Below the pieces are notes generated by a model. That model saw nothing but the letters and a program-made list of their open reading frames with translations. It was not told the origin of the DNA and ran no database searches. Shown here one piece after another: positions 24,362-56,766 of a stretch of 64,000 nucleotides of DNA (position 1 is the first letter of the stretch; the number at the start of each line of letters is the position of its first letter). This DNA is from Shigella phage ESh29: sequence record ON528739; one strand, given 5' to 3'. The translations under genes and the position numbers were made by a program.

Positions 24362-25755
<1,394 letters not shown>

Positions 25756-27187: not shown

Positions 27188-28775
<1,588 letters not shown>

Positions 28776-51743: not shown

Positions 51744-52204
51744 TAGTAAAGGTCCTCAGAGTAAAGTTCTTTTTCACTACCACCACGTTCAATACGTACT
51801 TGTCCGGCGTAAGTTGCAATAATCATTGCTTCTTCACGTGTCCAATAATTACTATATTGGTCAATAAACCCTTGGTCATCATCACAAACTTGTTGAGTAA
51901 CTAATTGAGGTTTAACTACATCTAAAACTTCTGCCATATCTTTAGAATAATGACGAGCACCTGGAATAATAAGAGTTCGTCCATCTTTTAATTTAAAACG
52001 GTTGGCTGCACAGACAATTCGTCGTTGATACTTTTGGTTTTCATCCCAATATGCAGTCTGCCAACAGATTTCAGGAACTTCTTTCAGAATATCTTCTTCT
52101 GTGCATTTATAACCATGCGCTTTAAATTTTTCAACAAGACTTTCTGGAGTTTCACGAGATAAAGGAACATTCAGCATTTTTAAACGATTAATAAATGGGT
52201 TCAT
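51743..52204 (-). CDS. Hypothetical protein, 153 aa
   Basis: ORF between arn and motA. Confidence 0.45.
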
Positions 52205-52530
52205 TTAAACCATCCTTTAATACGCTGCCACAAAGTTTTCTGTTGAGCTTTGTTAACACCAATTGAGCGAATAACTGGTTGAGATTCCTGGAATTCTTTA
52301 TAATCAGCAAGGTAAATTTCGTAAGCTGCATCTGTAAAGGAACTTATCGCTGCCATAAAATTATTGCGAATACCTACTAGAGCATCTTTACTTTCACGAA
52401 TAATCATGTATTTACCAGTCTTAATCTTTACGATAGTTCCAAGATAAGCTCCATGGTACCAAATATCCCAACCCTCTTGAGTAGGTTCTGCGCAACGACG
52501 AAGTTCATTAACAATTTCTAACTTGTTCAT
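52201..52530 (-). CDS. Hypothetical protein, 109 aa (motA.1 position)
   Basis: ORF directly downstream of motA. Confidence 0.45.
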
Positions 52531-53265: not shown

Positions 53266-53294
53266 AAATAAAAAGGGAGAGCCGAGGCTCTCCC
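53266..53294 (-). terminator. Rho-independent terminator (minus strand) after gene 52 and the small ORF
   Basis: GGGAGAGCC...GGCTCTCCC hairpin followed by TTTTTATTTT on the minus strand. Confidence 0.7.
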
Positions 53295-53299
53295 TAAAA

Positions 53300-53449
53300 T
53301 TACTGCATGACTGTGATAACTGTCATGATAACACGTTGAATTCCGAACGCAAGAAGACCTCCTGCTACGGCTGGAACAACGCCTAAACCCGCCAGTAAAA
53401 TGCTACCAGATACTAATGCAGCGCTTGTAATACCTATGAATGGACTCAT
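53300..53449 (-). CDS. Small hydrophobic membrane peptide, 49 aa
   Basis: Hand-translated ORF (MSPFIGITSAALVSGSILLAGLGVVPAVAGG...); ATGA overlap with the gp52 stop. Confidence 0.4.
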   Translation of the reverse strand: MSPFIGITSAALVSGSILLAGLGVVPAVAGGLLAFGIQRVIMTVITVMQ

Positions 53450-54774
53450 TTGATTTCCTCTAAATCTTTGATGTATTCTGTAACTACATCAGTATTTTTC
53501 CAATATTCGTTTTCTTCTTTTTTAGCTTTAGCTTCTTCAGCAAGTTTCTTTGCTTCGTCGGAAGTCATATGAAAAATATTCATTCCAACTAGTTTATCAA
53601 CATAAGAAGAATACATATCAATTTTAGAAAGTTCTTCGGTCAGTTCTTTACGAGTTTTACCCTGTACAACGATTTCACCTGAAATTACTTTCTTAATGAA
53701 ATGTGCCTTGGCAAAGGCTAAACGAAAAGCGGACTCAGTTTCTTTAATTTTGTTATCAATTCGTTTTTGGACATAAGTTTTACGAACTTCGACGAAGTCT
53801 TTGATTAAATCAACTACGTTATCGTAAACTTGTAGCTTTCCTTTCTCATTAATAACCGTAATATTCTGAGAACGACGCTCAATCAGTCCGAAGTCTTTCA
53901 TAATTTTTGCATGGCGTTCTTCTTCGTTATCGCTCAAAGAATATTCTTTACGGAATTTAACTTTAAATCCAAACCCGTGCTCACCACAAGCATCATCCCA
54001 TGTAATGAAGCCTTTATCTTCAAGTGGGTCTAAGATTTTACTCACATAAGTTTCACGATCATACTTATACGGAATCTCAGTGATATGCATTTGAGTTCGT
54101 GAAGTAAACTTATATGTTCCACGAATTTCATATTGCCCATCAATTTCAACGACTTCACCACGAAATTCTGGGAATTCTACCTTCGGTTTAGTTACTTTCT
54201 TTCCTTGAAGAGCTTGTAGTACAGCTTTCTTGACAGAAGAAACACTATGAGGAAGAATGTAAGTTGCATAACCAGTTGCAATACCGGAAACACCGTTAAG
54301 AAGAACAGTAGGAATAATAGGCAAATAGAAAGCAGGCGGAATGTGTTCTTTATCTTGATGTACCGGAGCATATTCAGTATCTTTATATACGTTATAGAAA
54401 TTTTTACTTACACGAGCAAAAATATAACGACTTGCCGCTGCTTTTTGAACGGTACGAGAACCAAAGTTTCCTTGACCATCTAACAAAGGAAAGTTATTAT
54501 TCCAAGCGTTAGCCATCAAAGCACCTGCGTCTTGTGCAGAGTTTTCGCCATGATGATATCCAAGGTCCGCTACACCACCTGCAATAGAAGCAAGTTTGTG
54601 AAACTTATCTTTATTTCCTCGTGCCAAATCAAGAGCTCGAGCAATAACAAATCGTTGGACTGGCTTAAATCCGTCAATCATATTTGGGATAGCACGATTT
54701 TCAACCGTGTACATAGCATAAGCCAATGCTTCATTATCAATGATACTTTTTAAATCGCGATTATTCAGTTGCAT
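53446..54774 (-). CDS. 52: DNA topoisomerase II medium subunit gp52, 442 aa
   Basis: GyrA-like breakage-reunion domain; T4 gp52 length; synteny. Confidence 0.9.
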   Translation of the reverse strand: MQLNNRDLKSIIDNEALAYAMYTVENRAIPNMIDGFKPVQRFVIARALDLARGNKDKFHKLASIAGGVADLGYHHGENSAQDAGALMANAWNNNFPLLDGQGNFGSRTVQKAAASRYIFARVSKNFYNVYKDTEYAPVHQDKEHIPPAFYLPIIPTVLLNGVSGIATGYATYILPHSVSSVKKAVLQALQGKKVTKPKVEFPEFRGEVVEIDGQYEIRGTYKFTSRTQMHITEIPYKYDRETYVSKILDPLEDKGFITWDDACGEHGFGFKVKFRKEYSLSDNEEERHAKIMKDFGLIERRSQNITVINEKGKLQVYDNVVDLIKDFVEVRKTYVQKRIDNKIKETESAFRLAFAKAHFIKKVISGEIVVQGKTRKELTEELSKIDMYSSYVDKLVGMNIFHMTSDEAKKLAEEAKAKKEENEYWKNTDVVTEYIKDLEEIK

Positions 54775-54778
54775 AAAT

Positions 54779-54919
54779 TTACCATACTAGTGAATGTAGT
54801 GCCATAATAACATCAGAAATGAAAAGCACGACTTGAATTAATCCGAACATTACTCCATAATATAGTGCTGCCAATAAAACAGCAAGGGCTAATGAATAGC
54901 CCAAGATTTTCTTAATCAT
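54779..54919 (-). CDS. Small hydrophobic membrane peptide, 46 aa
   Basis: Hand-translated ORF (MIKKILGYSLALAVLLAALYYGVMFGL...) ending 4 nt before the gp52 start. Confidence 0.35.
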   Translation of the reverse strand: MIKKILGYSLALAVLLAALYYGVMFGLIQVVLFISDVIMALHSLVW

Positions 54920-55070
54920 TAGTAGATAACAACACAAATGTTAAATATGCACACATACCCTGAGCTAAAGCTTGCGAAAACACACTGCTAGCATCGATAC
55001 AGATAGTTAAAACACATGCTACTATCCAACAAATAAATGAAATAACTCCTAATAATTTTGCGATATTCAT
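54912..55070 (-). CDS. Small hydrophobic membrane peptide, 52 aa (ac-like)
   Basis: Start at MNIAKLL with GAGGAG RBS (track ORF 54912-55100); one TM segment; resembles the adjacent 51-aa peptide. Confidence 0.4.
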   Translation of the reverse strand: MNIAKLLGVISFICWIVACVLTICIDASSVFSQALAQGMCAYLTFVLLSTND

Positions 55071-55080
55071 AATATTCTCC

Positions 55081-55236
55081 TCAACTATTTTTAGAACCAA
55101 TGTACGCGAATAATGATAAAATCGCTAATACGCCCTGAGCTGATGCTTGCAAAAATACTGAAGTTTCTCCAGTTATTACTGTTCCGATGCATAAAAAGAA
55201 CCAACAGAAAAAGGCTATACCGTGAACAAATTTCAT
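55081..55236 (-). CDS. Small hydrophobic membrane peptide, 51 aa (ac-like)
   Basis: Hand-translated ORF (MKFVHGIAFFCWFFLCIGTVITGE...); position between 52 and stp as T4 ac. Confidence 0.4.
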   Translation of the reverse strand: MKFVHGIAFFCWFFLCIGTVITGETSVFLQASAQGVLAILSLFAYIGSKNS

Positions 55237-55243
55237 ATTTTCC

Positions 55244-55324
55244 TCACTGGCGTCCGAAGACGCCTTTGGTTTTAAGATTGTTACGATAGAACTGCATCAC
55301 ATGTTCGTTATGGAAATTACTCAT
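55244..55324 (-). CDS. stp: Stp peptide, 26 aa
   Basis: Hand-translated [26 protein letters not shown], recognised as T4 Stp; TAATG overlap with the ndd stop. Confidence 0.8.
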
Positions 55325-55782
55325 TAATATGCCTGCAAAACAAATTTAAAGTTATCAGCCAACATACGGTTCATTTCTTCAAGTGTTTGATACTCAGAAT
55401 GATGATTACGAGTAAACGCTAAAGCTAACTGACCTTTTCCAAATCCCGTCGTCAGAGGTTTCATCTTAGAAGCAGGCAGATAAAACACTGTGTATGGAAC
55501 ATTATTATTTGCAATAGTATGAGCAAGCTGAGACCGGCGTTGACGAATATGACTTAGAACTGCGCTGAATCCTTGCTTAGAACGCTGATTACCTACATAA
55601 AATCGTGCAGACACACATGGATTACTAAATGGACGACCATCTAATTTACTTACTAAAAAGTAAAATCCAGGTTTAGATAAAATATCTTTATGCGGAGTTC
55701 CTAAAAACCATTCACCACCCTTGATTGTACCAATGACAGTAGCGCCTGCGTTGTTCAGATCAGTAACAGTCATATATTTCAT
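55324..55782 (-). CDS. ndd: Nucleoid disruption protein Ndd, 152 aa
   Basis: Start set at MKYMTVTD inside track ORF 55324-55830; sequence recognised as Ndd; synteny. Confidence 0.8.
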
Positions 55783-55842: not shown

Positions 55843-56058
55843 TTAATCGTCGCAGTCGACGCTCAATTCCCAAAACTCTTCTACAGTATAAGTTTCAGTA
55901 TCATTTTCAATACAGAAACGTTCATTACTATTATTTGCTAAAGTAGCATTAACTGTCGGTTTCTCGCTAGTGCTCTTAAGAGGTGAAATGCGAATTAACT
56001 GATCGCCGTTATCTAAACAGAAAATTTCACCAACTTTTACATCTTTAAAGATTTTCAT
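55843..56058 (-). CDS. Hypothetical protein, 71 aa
   Basis: ORF between denB and ndd. Confidence 0.4.
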   Translation of the reverse strand: MKIFKDVKVGEIFCLDNGDQLIRISPLKSTSEKPTVNATLANNSNERFCIENDTETYTVEEFWELSVDCDD

Positions 56059-56173
56059 AATTCACCTCAAGGAGTATAAAATCCAAATGCAGTTGTTGAC
56101 CATCCCATCCAATACGGGAAATTTGCGCCAATGTAAAACATGAGAATATAAAACCAACCGCTCAGCAAATTCA

Positions 56174-56392
56174 TCATTTTACACCATTCCAAATTGTTTC
56201 AACCACAGATTTTAAACCATTTTGATGAATATCCATTCCGACTACTGCCATCAAATAGATTCCAACTACAACTGAACCTAGCGCAAAAATCAGCATGAAA
56301 ATGAATAAAGCCGGAAAAATATTATCGAAAAACCATTCAATAAATGTAAAAGCACTGCGTTTACGCTTCATATTTTCCTCACATAAATCCAA
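56174..56392 (-). CDS. Hypothetical membrane protein, 72 aa
   Basis: ORF with two hydrophobic segments. Confidence 0.4.
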   Translation of the reverse strand: MDLCEENMKRKRSAFTFIEWFFDNIFPALFIFMLIFALGSVVVGIYLMAVVGMDIHQNGLKSVVETIWNGVK

Positions 56393-56492
56393 AGTAAACG
56401 TTTAATACATCAATCATTAAAACGATTGGGAATATACTCAAAACTGTTAGTATTATAACTACATTCCATATAGCTTTAATAATCTTTTTCAT
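56379..56492 (-). CDS. Small membrane peptide, 37 aa
   Basis: Start at MKKIIKAIW with GGAGGAA RBS; the longer track ORF 56379-56588 would read through a promoter cassette. Confidence 0.35.
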   Translation of the reverse strand: MKKIIKAIWNVVIILTVLSIFPIVLMIDVLNVYFGFM

Positions 56493-56520
56493 TTTCTGTT
56501 CCTCCGTAGTTGATAGTTGT

Positions 56521-56550
56521 ATAGTACCACGGAAGAACAGTCTTGTAAAC
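56521..56550 (-). promoter_or_regulatory. Early-promoter-like element (GTTTAC, 18-nt spacer, TACTAT), minus strand
   Basis: Minus-strand GTTTAC at 56545-56550 and TACTAT at 56521-56526, followed by the conserved ACAACTATCAACTAC leader. Confidence 0.5.
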
Positions 56551-56766
56551 AACTTTTTAAAAATATTCGTAATAAATGTGAATACCAACTACTACCGCTG
56601 AAACCTGTGCAACCCACCACGCACAAGCAATAAGTACAGAATTCAAAATTTTCATAATAACCTCATCACAAAAGTAAATGTTAAACAAATTACTGGAATA
56701 CTAATTAACCAAACAAAACACCACCATAGTGAACTCATAGTTCAATCTCAACGATTTTCATTTTAC

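Follow-up and report, generated by a model that had tools for sequence, protein, structure and literature searches.

The locus at positions 53,300 to 55,324 of the window, by which is meant the whole 64,000-nucleotide stretch of Shigella phage ESh29 (record ON528739) that was analysed, was found to be the early-gene block usual for a Tequatrovirus, ndd–stp–ac–52.1–52–motA.1, encoded on the minus strand and closed by an intrinsic terminator. Its sole departure from T4 was the presence of two Ac-family genes in tandem at the ac locus, referred to here as type A (52 aa, adjoining 52.1) and type B (51 aa, adjoining stp). As an account of the locus as a whole, a standard early block carrying an old tandem B–A pair was considered highly probable.

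The order of genes on the minus strand was motA.1, gene 52, 52.1, the two Ac-family peptides and Stp, and all the ORFs of an earlier note on this DNA were present where it had placed them, with a peptide of 49 aa downstream of gene 52 and peptides of 46, 52 and 51 aa upstream of it. The intrinsic terminator (53274..53295, minus strand), a 9-bp GC-rich stem followed by a T run (AGGGAGAGCCTCGGCTCTCCCT then TTTTATTTTA), is located just 3' of motA.1 and upstream of the motA promoter region, and is predicted to end the ndd-stp-ac-52.1-52-motA.1 transcription unit. Directly after gene 52 and before this terminator lies motA.1 (53300..53449, minus strand), named as such in T4, which encodes a Gly/Ala-rich and very hydrophobic peptide of 49 aa (MSPFIG..., GRAVY 1.60) matching the profile of phrog_3487 over 49/49 positions (E = 2.2e-31). 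Its ATG overlaps the stop codon of gene 52 (ATGA). Gene 52 itself (53446..54774, minus strand) encodes the 442-aa medium subunit of DNA topoisomerase II and is gene 52 in both the T4 and Geo annotations. The 46-aa membrane peptide of 52.1 (54779..54919, minus strand; MIKKILGY..., phrog_3595, T4 52.1) matched PF24129 (DUF7396) over 46/46 positions, scoring 79.6 bits where the gathering cut-off is 27 (E = 1.9e-22).

Shine-Dalgarno sequences of the GAGG type were observed 6 to 8 nt upstream of three of these ORFs, namely motA.1 and both ac copies. The ATG of 52.1 falls within the last codons of ac-A (ATGATTAA, an 8-nt overlap), and as it overlaps the upstream stop and 52.1 has no Shine-Dalgarno of its own, translational coupling of 52.1 is probable. 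In comparison with gp52.1 and MotA.1 of T4, the versions in the window gave full-length family matches and had the same positions and the same overlaps, but differed by a few conservative substitutions. Both may be regarded as conserved, putatively membrane-borne micro-proteins, with start/stop overlaps that suggest translational coupling to gene 52. Direct evidence of translation was not found in the literature on motA.1 and on T4 ribosome profiling or small-ORF data.

Each of the five small ORFs matched a curated phage family over its full length, with E values from 1e-21 to 1e-31. Because every one of them did so, chance ORFs could be excluded on sequence grounds, in agreement with the view of the earlier note that the small peptides are real genes. 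The four hydrophobic peptides had GRAVY values of 1.15 to 1.73 by hydropathy analysis. They are not, however, unannotated genes: motA.1, 52.1, ac and stp are four named genes of the T4 reference, the ac pair is annotated in several GenBank records, and there is no unannotated gene at the locus, all of its ORFs belonging to described T4 families.

The 26-aa peptide was correctly recognised as Stp. The gene (55244..55324, minus strand; phrog_6763) encodes a hydrophilic product (GRAVY -1.03) that matched PF08133 (Nuclease_act) over 26/26 positions (E = 2e-21) and is identical to T4 Stp at 26/26 residues. Its upstream neighbour is ndd (55324..55782, minus strand), encoding the nucleoid disruption protein (PF06591, E = 1e-94), the stop of ndd overlapping the start of stp by one base. 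As in T4, stp is situated between ndd and ac, and no difference from T4 Stp was seen in the window. Conservation of Stp is limited to its first 18 residues (PMC3014915), and the conserved N-terminal 18 residues expected of Nuclease_act are present. In T4, Stp is an inhibitor of type IC restriction (EcoprrI) and an activator of the anticodon nuclease PrrC (PMC3014915). The tRNA-repair genes that had been placed in the same window were confirmed by domain matches, pseT at 24551-25456 having the kinase and the phosphatase domain of PNKP and rnlA at 27188-28348 the T4 Rnl1 domains. Stp would act here as in T4, with inhibition of type IC restriction tripping PrrC, and PseT and RnlA, encoded in the same window, may then repair the damage. 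Within the last stp codons, folding revealed a C(UUCG)G tetraloop hairpin (55249..55264, minus strand; GGCGUC-UUCG-GACGCC, MFE -12.2 kcal/mol, z = -2.1), which ends 5 nt short of the GAGG in the Shine-Dalgarno of ac-B.

That the window holds one ac-family gene more than T4 was borne out by alignment, which revealed a 166-nt insertion containing the 51-aa gene. The 51-aa peptide had been assigned the position of T4 ac; it does lie next to stp, but it is the 52-aa peptide that aligns to T4 ac. Since type A (54912..55070, minus strand; MNIAKLL...) shares about 98% nucleotide identity with T4 ac in this alignment, and since the insertion carries the 51-aa gene, the T4 ac orthologue is the 52-aa peptide adjoining 52.1 and not the 51-aa peptide; the extra gene relative to T4 is type B (55081..55236, minus strand; MKFVHG...), adjoining stp. 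Type A corresponds to T4 Ac with one extra Thr three codons before the stop, with three synonymous and no nonsynonymous differences, and T4 Ac (gene ac, NP_049877; PF26944 Phage_T4_Ac; phrog_2501) is flanked by the same genes and overlaps 52.1 in the same way. In profile matches to phrog_2501, type A gave E = 3.7e-25 over residues 1-51 and type B gave E = 4.9e-26 over residues 1-50. Neither ac peptide matched Pfam, as the Pfam set searched lacked the Ac model, and the PHROGs together with the precomputed PF26944 label were used instead. By database search, type A was present in 459 phage records and type B in 92.

The likeness of the 52-aa and 51-aa peptides was likewise substantiated as paralogy, with 17/40 identities by BLASTP (E = 6e-10) and membership of both in phrog_2501 at E of about 1e-25. 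The suggestion that the extra copy is a duplication thus held as regards paralogy, but not as regards a recent event. Only 36% amino acid and 54% nucleotide identity remains between A and B, and synonymous sites are saturated (dS 1.27). Because of this divergence, A and B are not the products of a fresh duplication, but two old lineages (paralogs or alleles) of one family standing side by side. Compared with T4 Ac, type B belongs to the same family and has the same invariant residues and predicted two-helix hairpin, but is only 36-37% identical, has a TGET loop (TGETSVFLQASAQG) in place of IDAS, and is absent from T4. The loop of type B, TGETSVF, is typical of the family; its TGE(T/S)SVF form also occurs in Mosigvirus and Klebsiella T4-like phages, and a GE(T/S/I) loop resembling that of B was present in every outgroup Ac peptide (Mosigvirus HX01, Jiaodavirus Kpn6N, P0009 and P0014), IDAS being found in A alone. 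In a neighbour-joining tree of nine 50-aa peptides, too weak to tell duplication from allele merging, A grouped with P0009, a single-copy gene in another T4-like contig whose product is 53% identical to A, and B grouped with Mosigvirus Ac.

A word-indexed protein search returned only seven relatives of the Ac peptides, and a profile search run exhaustively against 1.84 billion representatives yielded no more than about four further clusters. Bacterial Ac relatives were not found among those 1.84 billion representatives, and two long proteins at E of about 1e-4 were rejected as low-complexity noise. The Ac family therefore seems, on these searches, to be confined to T4-like enterobacterial phages.

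The 10 nucleotides between B and A (55071..55080, minus strand) hold the Shine-Dalgarno of ac-A (TTGAGGAGAATATT-ATG on the coding strand) and resemble the spacer between stp and ac (GTGAGGAAAAT-ATG). Direct repeats of the two spacers (repeat D3) bound the 166-nt unit that is absent from T4. The B–A junction was found at 95-100% identity in 50 GenBank records of Escherichia, Shigella, Yersinia and Citrobacter phages, in which the tandem is often annotated "acridine resistance (x2)". Given this junction and the existing annotation, the tandem ac pair is no artefact, nor is it new, being in GenBank already. The pairs of ECML-134, Sf22, vB_Eco_Geo, Aplg8, PST and PhiZZ6 have the same B–A order, the same junction and an identical B protein, with no relevant difference from the window at the ac locus. 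Over 24 kb, however, the best database match reached an identity of only about 95% to the window's phage, which is therefore a different mosaic isolate.

The position of the ac genes between ndd/stp and 52.1–52 was the same in the window, in T4 and in the other loci compared, and four layouts were distinguished among Tequatroviruses. The T4 arrangement, stp–A, accounts for roughly 370 records and the RB51 arrangement, stp–B, for roughly 40; the stp–B–A of the window was found in 50 and the stp'–A of T2 and T6 in roughly 39. These counts are approximate, as they derive from BLAST coverage classes of database matches and not from inspection of genomes one by one. Direct checks showed that RB51, Sf23 and phage 212 carry type B and no other ac gene, and the type-B-only status of RB68, RB32 and RB33 is inferred from annotation and matches. 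In the T2/T6 layout, the stp of T2, T6 and fFiEco06 closes with 31 nt that exactly match the 3' end of B together with the junction. An in-frame deletion has fused codon 19 of stp to the last codons of B, so that the Stp C-terminus of T2, T6 and about 35 further records (…KNFGILGFKNS in the T2/T6 form), which differs from that in the window, derives from a relic of a lost B copy.

An initial possibility was that the pair arose by a recent tandem duplication in the window's phage, the 51-aa gene being the original ac and the 52-aa gene the new copy. The two genes are indeed adjacent, homologous and of the same size, and the 166-nt unit is flanked by similar Shine-Dalgarno/start repeats. However, the saturated divergence of A and B contrasts with flanking stp and 52.1 genes that are about 93-100% identical to those of T4, RB5, RB51 and Sf23, the T4 ac orthologue is the 52-aa and not the 51-aa copy, the same tandem and junction exist in 50 other records, and a B relic is found in T2 and T6. 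The A/B divergence and the shared junction together refute a recent duplication, which was accordingly held to be very improbable. An assembly or collapse artefact, for which nothing speaks beyond the small size of the second copy, is refuted in turn by the junction at 95-100% identity in 50 independent GenBank records from different laboratories and hosts, and was given practically no credence; the absence from independent assemblies that the earlier note had named as grounds for abandoning the duplicate ORF was not encountered.

It is possible, though we lean against it, that unequal or illegitimate recombination between A-only and B-only phages merged two alleles, in which case the T4-type and RB51-type loci would be ancestral and not deletion products. 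Single-copy loci of both types share identical flanks and the ATGATTAA overlap with 52.1, a single-copy A-related form (P0009) exists in another T4-like contig, T-even genomes are mosaic, and the junction looks as if a duplicate of the stp/ac spacer had been attached behind the AAAAAT of B. Several positions nevertheless distinguish the junction from today's stp/ac spacer (GTGAGGAAAATATG versus TTGAGGAGAATATTATG), and a merging event would therefore not be recent; furthermore, T2/T6-type loci clearly descend from the tandem, so deletion from the tandem does occur. Such merging differs from the preferred explanation, an old tandem B–A pair in a standard early block, in the order of events only, and ancient tandem duplication followed by losses fits the data as well. 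It was also considered whether type B in tandem phages is a redundant gene in the course of being lost, effectively a young pseudogene with no functional contribution. Most Tequatroviruses are without B, B has been destroyed by deletion at least once (the T2/T6 type), phages can do without ac, which is disrupted in the records of laboratory T2 and T6, and the dN/dS of B alleles (0.41-0.54, only moderate constraint) is higher than that of type A. In the tblastn matches listed, however, type B aligned over its full length, the best match being at least 99% identical in 39 records and 95-99% in 8 more, and a 100% identical protein was present in many records; type B also has a strong Shine-Dalgarno, retains all six invariant residues, and has no second ac gene beside it in RB51-type phages. 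Decay of B was consequently judged unlikely. The dN/dS values are consistent with purifying selection on type A, type B, 52.1 (0.12 versus phage 212) and stp (0.12, like 52.1), the type B copies of tandem phages being too alike for a selection test within that group.

What the Ac peptides do is best approached from T4, in which genetics and a 2025 preprint show that acridines accumulate, through the action of type A, in cells that are infected or express it, and in which the substitution G38R in Ac confers acriflavine resistance (10.1101/2025.06.30.662393). On the basis of phenotypes and a predicted structure, it was proposed that Ac obstructs AcrAB-TolC efflux (10.1101/2025.06.30.662393; also cited in PMC13250531), and the ESMfold model of type A was likewise a two-helix hairpin (10.1101/2025.06.30.662393). 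An AlphaFold model of type B gave a helical hairpin with helices at residues 2-22 and 27-50 (pLDDT 78), and both Ac peptides are predicted to consist of two hydrophobic helices of about 20 residues and a short polar loop, forming a membrane hairpin. Comparison of the type B model with the PDB using Foldseek gave no significant match, a 50-residue hairpin being uninformative for fold searches, and a profile search of PDB sequences with Ac was also without a significant match. Each Ac may thus form a two-helix hairpin in the inner membrane, with both termini, each marked by a Lys, in the cytoplasm and with the short acidic loop and conserved SVF-QA-AQG stretch facing the periplasm.

Type A would then obstruct AcrAB-TolC, as the preprint proposes, and lead to acridine accumulation. 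In the family alignment, type B retains all six family-invariant residues (W, T, V, Q, Q and G) as well as the SVF-QA-AQG motif, including the Gly of AQG that corresponds to G38 of T4 Ac. Because every one of these residues is kept, type B would be expected to have the same kind of activity, perhaps with another partner or host range. No test of the effect of type B on acridine sensitivity was found in the literature searched. In terms of action, Ac invites comparison with the AcrZ-type modulators of RND efflux, which are likewise inner-membrane peptides of about 50 aa, AcrAB-TolC being the proposed target of Ac also. AcrZ, however, has a single transmembrane helix, whereas two are predicted in Ac. 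With this difference in helix number and no sequence or fold relationship found, membership of Ac in an AcrZ-like family was rejected.

For genome annotation these results carry little weight, as the families are described in T4 and GenBank already contains the tandem pair. They do account for a polymorphism already known at the Stp C-terminus of T2 and T6, which is what remains of an ac paralog lost by deletion. A further reading, which we regard as rather doubtful, is that the T-even ac locus was originally a non-redundant B–A module, acting for example on different RND pumps or in different hosts, or as a heterodimer, and that the textbook phages carry decayed versions of it. If this were true, T4 would retain only the derived A, RB51 only B, and T2 and T6 A together with a B relic in Stp; phages of the window's type would show the reference state intact, and only half of the system would be captured by the classical ac phenotype. 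The preprint, the one recent functional study of Ac, drew its survey from BLASTN matches at 93-100% identity and covered type A alone (10.1101/2025.06.30.662393), so that a second lineage, more widely conserved and still carrying the functionally critical Gly, was missed. The assignment of the two copies matters for the use of ac as an acriflavine counter-selection marker in Tequatroviruses other than T4, since phages that carry both B and A, or B without A, may respond in another way.

The window was found to be a portion of a Tequatrovirus (T4-like) genome. Matches to the 2.2-kb region came from 741 phage records, of which 497 showed 95-99% identity, the top match being 97.8%; as the best match in a 24-kb comparison reached only ~95% identity, the window phage is a distinct mosaic isolate. 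The block annotated ndd, stp, ac, 52.1, 52 and motA.1 in the T4 reference lies on the minus strand and here consists of ndd (55324-55782), stp (55244-55324, 26 aa; PF08133, E = 2e-21), a 51-aa (55081-55236) and a 52-aa (54912-55070) hydrophobic peptide, termed Ac types B and A (each phrog_2501, E about 1e-25), 52.1 (54779-54919, 46 aa; DUF7396, PF24129, E = 2e-22), gene 52 (53446-54774) and motA.1 (53300-53449, 49 aa; phrog_3487, E = 2e-31), followed by a strong intrinsic terminator (53274-53295). The Stp peptide is identical to that of T4, and GRAVY values of the four hydrophobic peptides were 1.15-1.73. The small peptides, Stp, pseT (24551-25456) and rnlA (27188-28348) of the earlier note were all present, every small ORF having a full-length curated family match. 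The locus is real but ordinary, consisting of four named T4 micro-genes and an Ac paralog that is already public.

The cluster of membrane micro-proteins was also seen to reach well past these genes, upstream of ndd, where the T4 ndd.1-ndd.6 region (55843-56740, minus strand) holds more small ORFs, several of them hydrophobic peptides of 30-70 aa (e.g., 56174-56392, 56379-56588 and 56557-56688). Directly downstream of motA, a 109-aa ORF (52201-52530, minus strand), whose matching gene is annotated in phage Geo as an anti-restriction nuclease, occupies the slot of T4 arn.4 (68 aa), a local mosaic difference from T4.

Alignment with T4 revealed a single 166-nt insertion in the window, which starts just past the stp/ac Shine-Dalgarno sequence and ends at the ATG of the 52-aa gene. 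The latter differs from T4 ac by three synonymous and no nonsynonymous changes and one extra Thr codon, a variant also found in PP01, which stays acriflavine-sensitive (10.1101/2025.06.30.662393). As the 52-aa gene aligns with T4 ac, the extra gene is type B, adjoining stp, and the earlier assignment of the 51-aa peptide to the position of T4 ac is reversed. Nor is the duplicate peculiar to one assembly: a 120-nt probe spanning the B/A junction, the spacer between the two genes, had matches of 95-100% identity in phages of Escherichia, Shigella, Yersinia (PST) and Citrobacter (PhiZZ6), 50 records in all, several with two annotated "acridine resistance" genes. Type A DNA was present in 459 phage records and type B DNA in 92. 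Among the tblastn matches listed for B, which were full-length, the best match was at least 99% identical in 39 records and 95-99% identical in 8 more. Some 50 public genomes already carry paralog B, often as an annotated gene. In RB51, Sf23 and phage 212, type B is the sole ac gene, ending in …ND before the stop and overlapping 52.1 through ATGATTAA, as type A does in T4; from annotation and matches, RB68, RB32 and RB33 appear to be B-only too.

The recent duplication implied by the earlier note is wrong: A and B share only 18 of 49 residues (36%; BLASTP, 17/40 identities, E = 6e-10) and 54% of nucleotides, with dS about 1.3, and only a 47-nt core coding SVF-QA-AQG holds 72% identity, whereas stp and 52.1 match their T4, RB5, RB51 and Sf23 counterparts at about 93-100% identity. 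Types A and B may have split as alleles in different lineages, to be joined later, since the related protein P0009 is closer to A (53% identity) than to B (44%) and is single-copy. In the tandem-type phage T4_ev151, B (P0003) has an N-terminal half like the B-only alleles (YG..FFCWSFLFAG) and a C-terminal half equal to that of the B copy in the window, suggesting recombination among B alleles.

Searched exhaustively with a profile, 1.84 billion representative proteins yielded only about seven Ac clusters, all of ~50-aa peptides; the family name (PF26944, Phage_T4_Ac) comes from one precomputed label. The single Ac proteins of Mosigvirus HX01 and Klebsiella Jiaodavirus Kpn6N have the loops TGETTVF and TGETSVI, and those of P0009 and P0014 are GES and GEI, whereas IDAS occurs in type A alone; the B loop is therefore family-typical and the classical T4 Ac the most derived member. 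In distant T4-like phages, stp is replaced by an unrelated hydrophobic peptide of ~51 aa (1055-1210 of the Kpn6N locus; about 745-902 of the Logan SRR8048111 contig), and the ndd–ac slot seems to be an exchange hotspot for micro-protein genes.

The acriflavine phenotypes in the literature are confined to the type A gene of T4: its knockout and its point mutation give resistance, expression of Ac sensitises E. coli, and obstruction of AcrAB-TolC was proposed (10.1101/2025.06.30.662393) and restated as an assumption in a 2026 PNAS paper (PMC13250531). B is predicted to form a helical hairpin (helices 2-22 and 27-50, pLDDT 78), and the Lys at both ends and acidic loop suggest that both Ac termini would be cytoplasmic. 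As B keeps all invariant residues (W12, T19, V27, Q30, Q34 and G35, numbered as in B), it may act like A; G35 aligns with T4 Ac G38, whose substitution G38R confers acriflavine resistance (10.1101/2025.06.30.662393).

GAGG Shine-Dalgarno sequences precede ac-A, ac-B and motA.1, and the start codons of 52.1 and motA.1 overlap the preceding stops, suggesting translation coupled with gene 52. The exclusively synonymous changes in type A and the dN/dS values of 52.1 and stp (0.12) and of type B alleles (0.41-0.54) argue for coding constraint; a literature search for translation of B, 52.1 and motA.1 found no direct evidence. A C(UUCG)G tetraloop hairpin (GGCGUC-UUCG-GACGCC, -12.2 kcal/mol; 55249-55264, minus strand) lies within the final stp codons, directly 5' of the ac-B ribosome-binding site, and is kept in T4 and RB51 but deleted from T2/T6-type loci. 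In tandem and T2/T6-type phages the ac-A Shine-Dalgarno sequence is GAGGAG (55071-55080), including GGAG, the RegB endoribonuclease motif, while GAGGAAAA precedes ac-B (55237-55243) and T4 ac. Post-transcriptional control of the two genes may possibly differ.

T2, T6 and fFiEco06 belong to a further class of about 39 records, whose stp (419-505 of the T6 locus, 423-506 of T2, 566-652 of fFiEco06) agrees with that of T4 over 18 codons and continues as …N FGILG(S/F)K(NS/K)-stop. The last 31 nt of this stp and the spacer (GGTTCTAAAAATAGTTGAGGAGAATATTATG) equal the type B 3' end plus the B/A junction in the window (together, compare 55071-55110), so these loci descend from a B–A tandem through an in-frame deletion in which stp was fused to the B tail. 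This explains why conservation of T-even Stp is limited to its first 18 residues, the C-terminal 8 codons being largely dispensable (PMC3014915). In T4, type A sits behind a B-type upstream region (hairpin and GAGGAAAA), a layout that could be either a second, precise deletion between Shine-Dalgarno/start repeats or the pre-tandem state. Type A is itself broken in the records of laboratory strains T6 (MH550421; 259-408 of the locus; +1 G frameshift after AQGM, giving …WCIFNICVVI-stop) and T2 (LC348380; 253-410; TCA-to-TAA nonsense at about codon 11), and the gene can evidently be dispensed with and is readily lost. Only small points are new, namely the family-typical loop of B, the four locus layouts (stp–A, stp–B, stp–B–A and stp'–A) and the origin of the T2/T6 Stp tail, by which the polymorphic Stp C-terminus of T2, T6 and ~35 other records is the relic of a deleted ac paralog.
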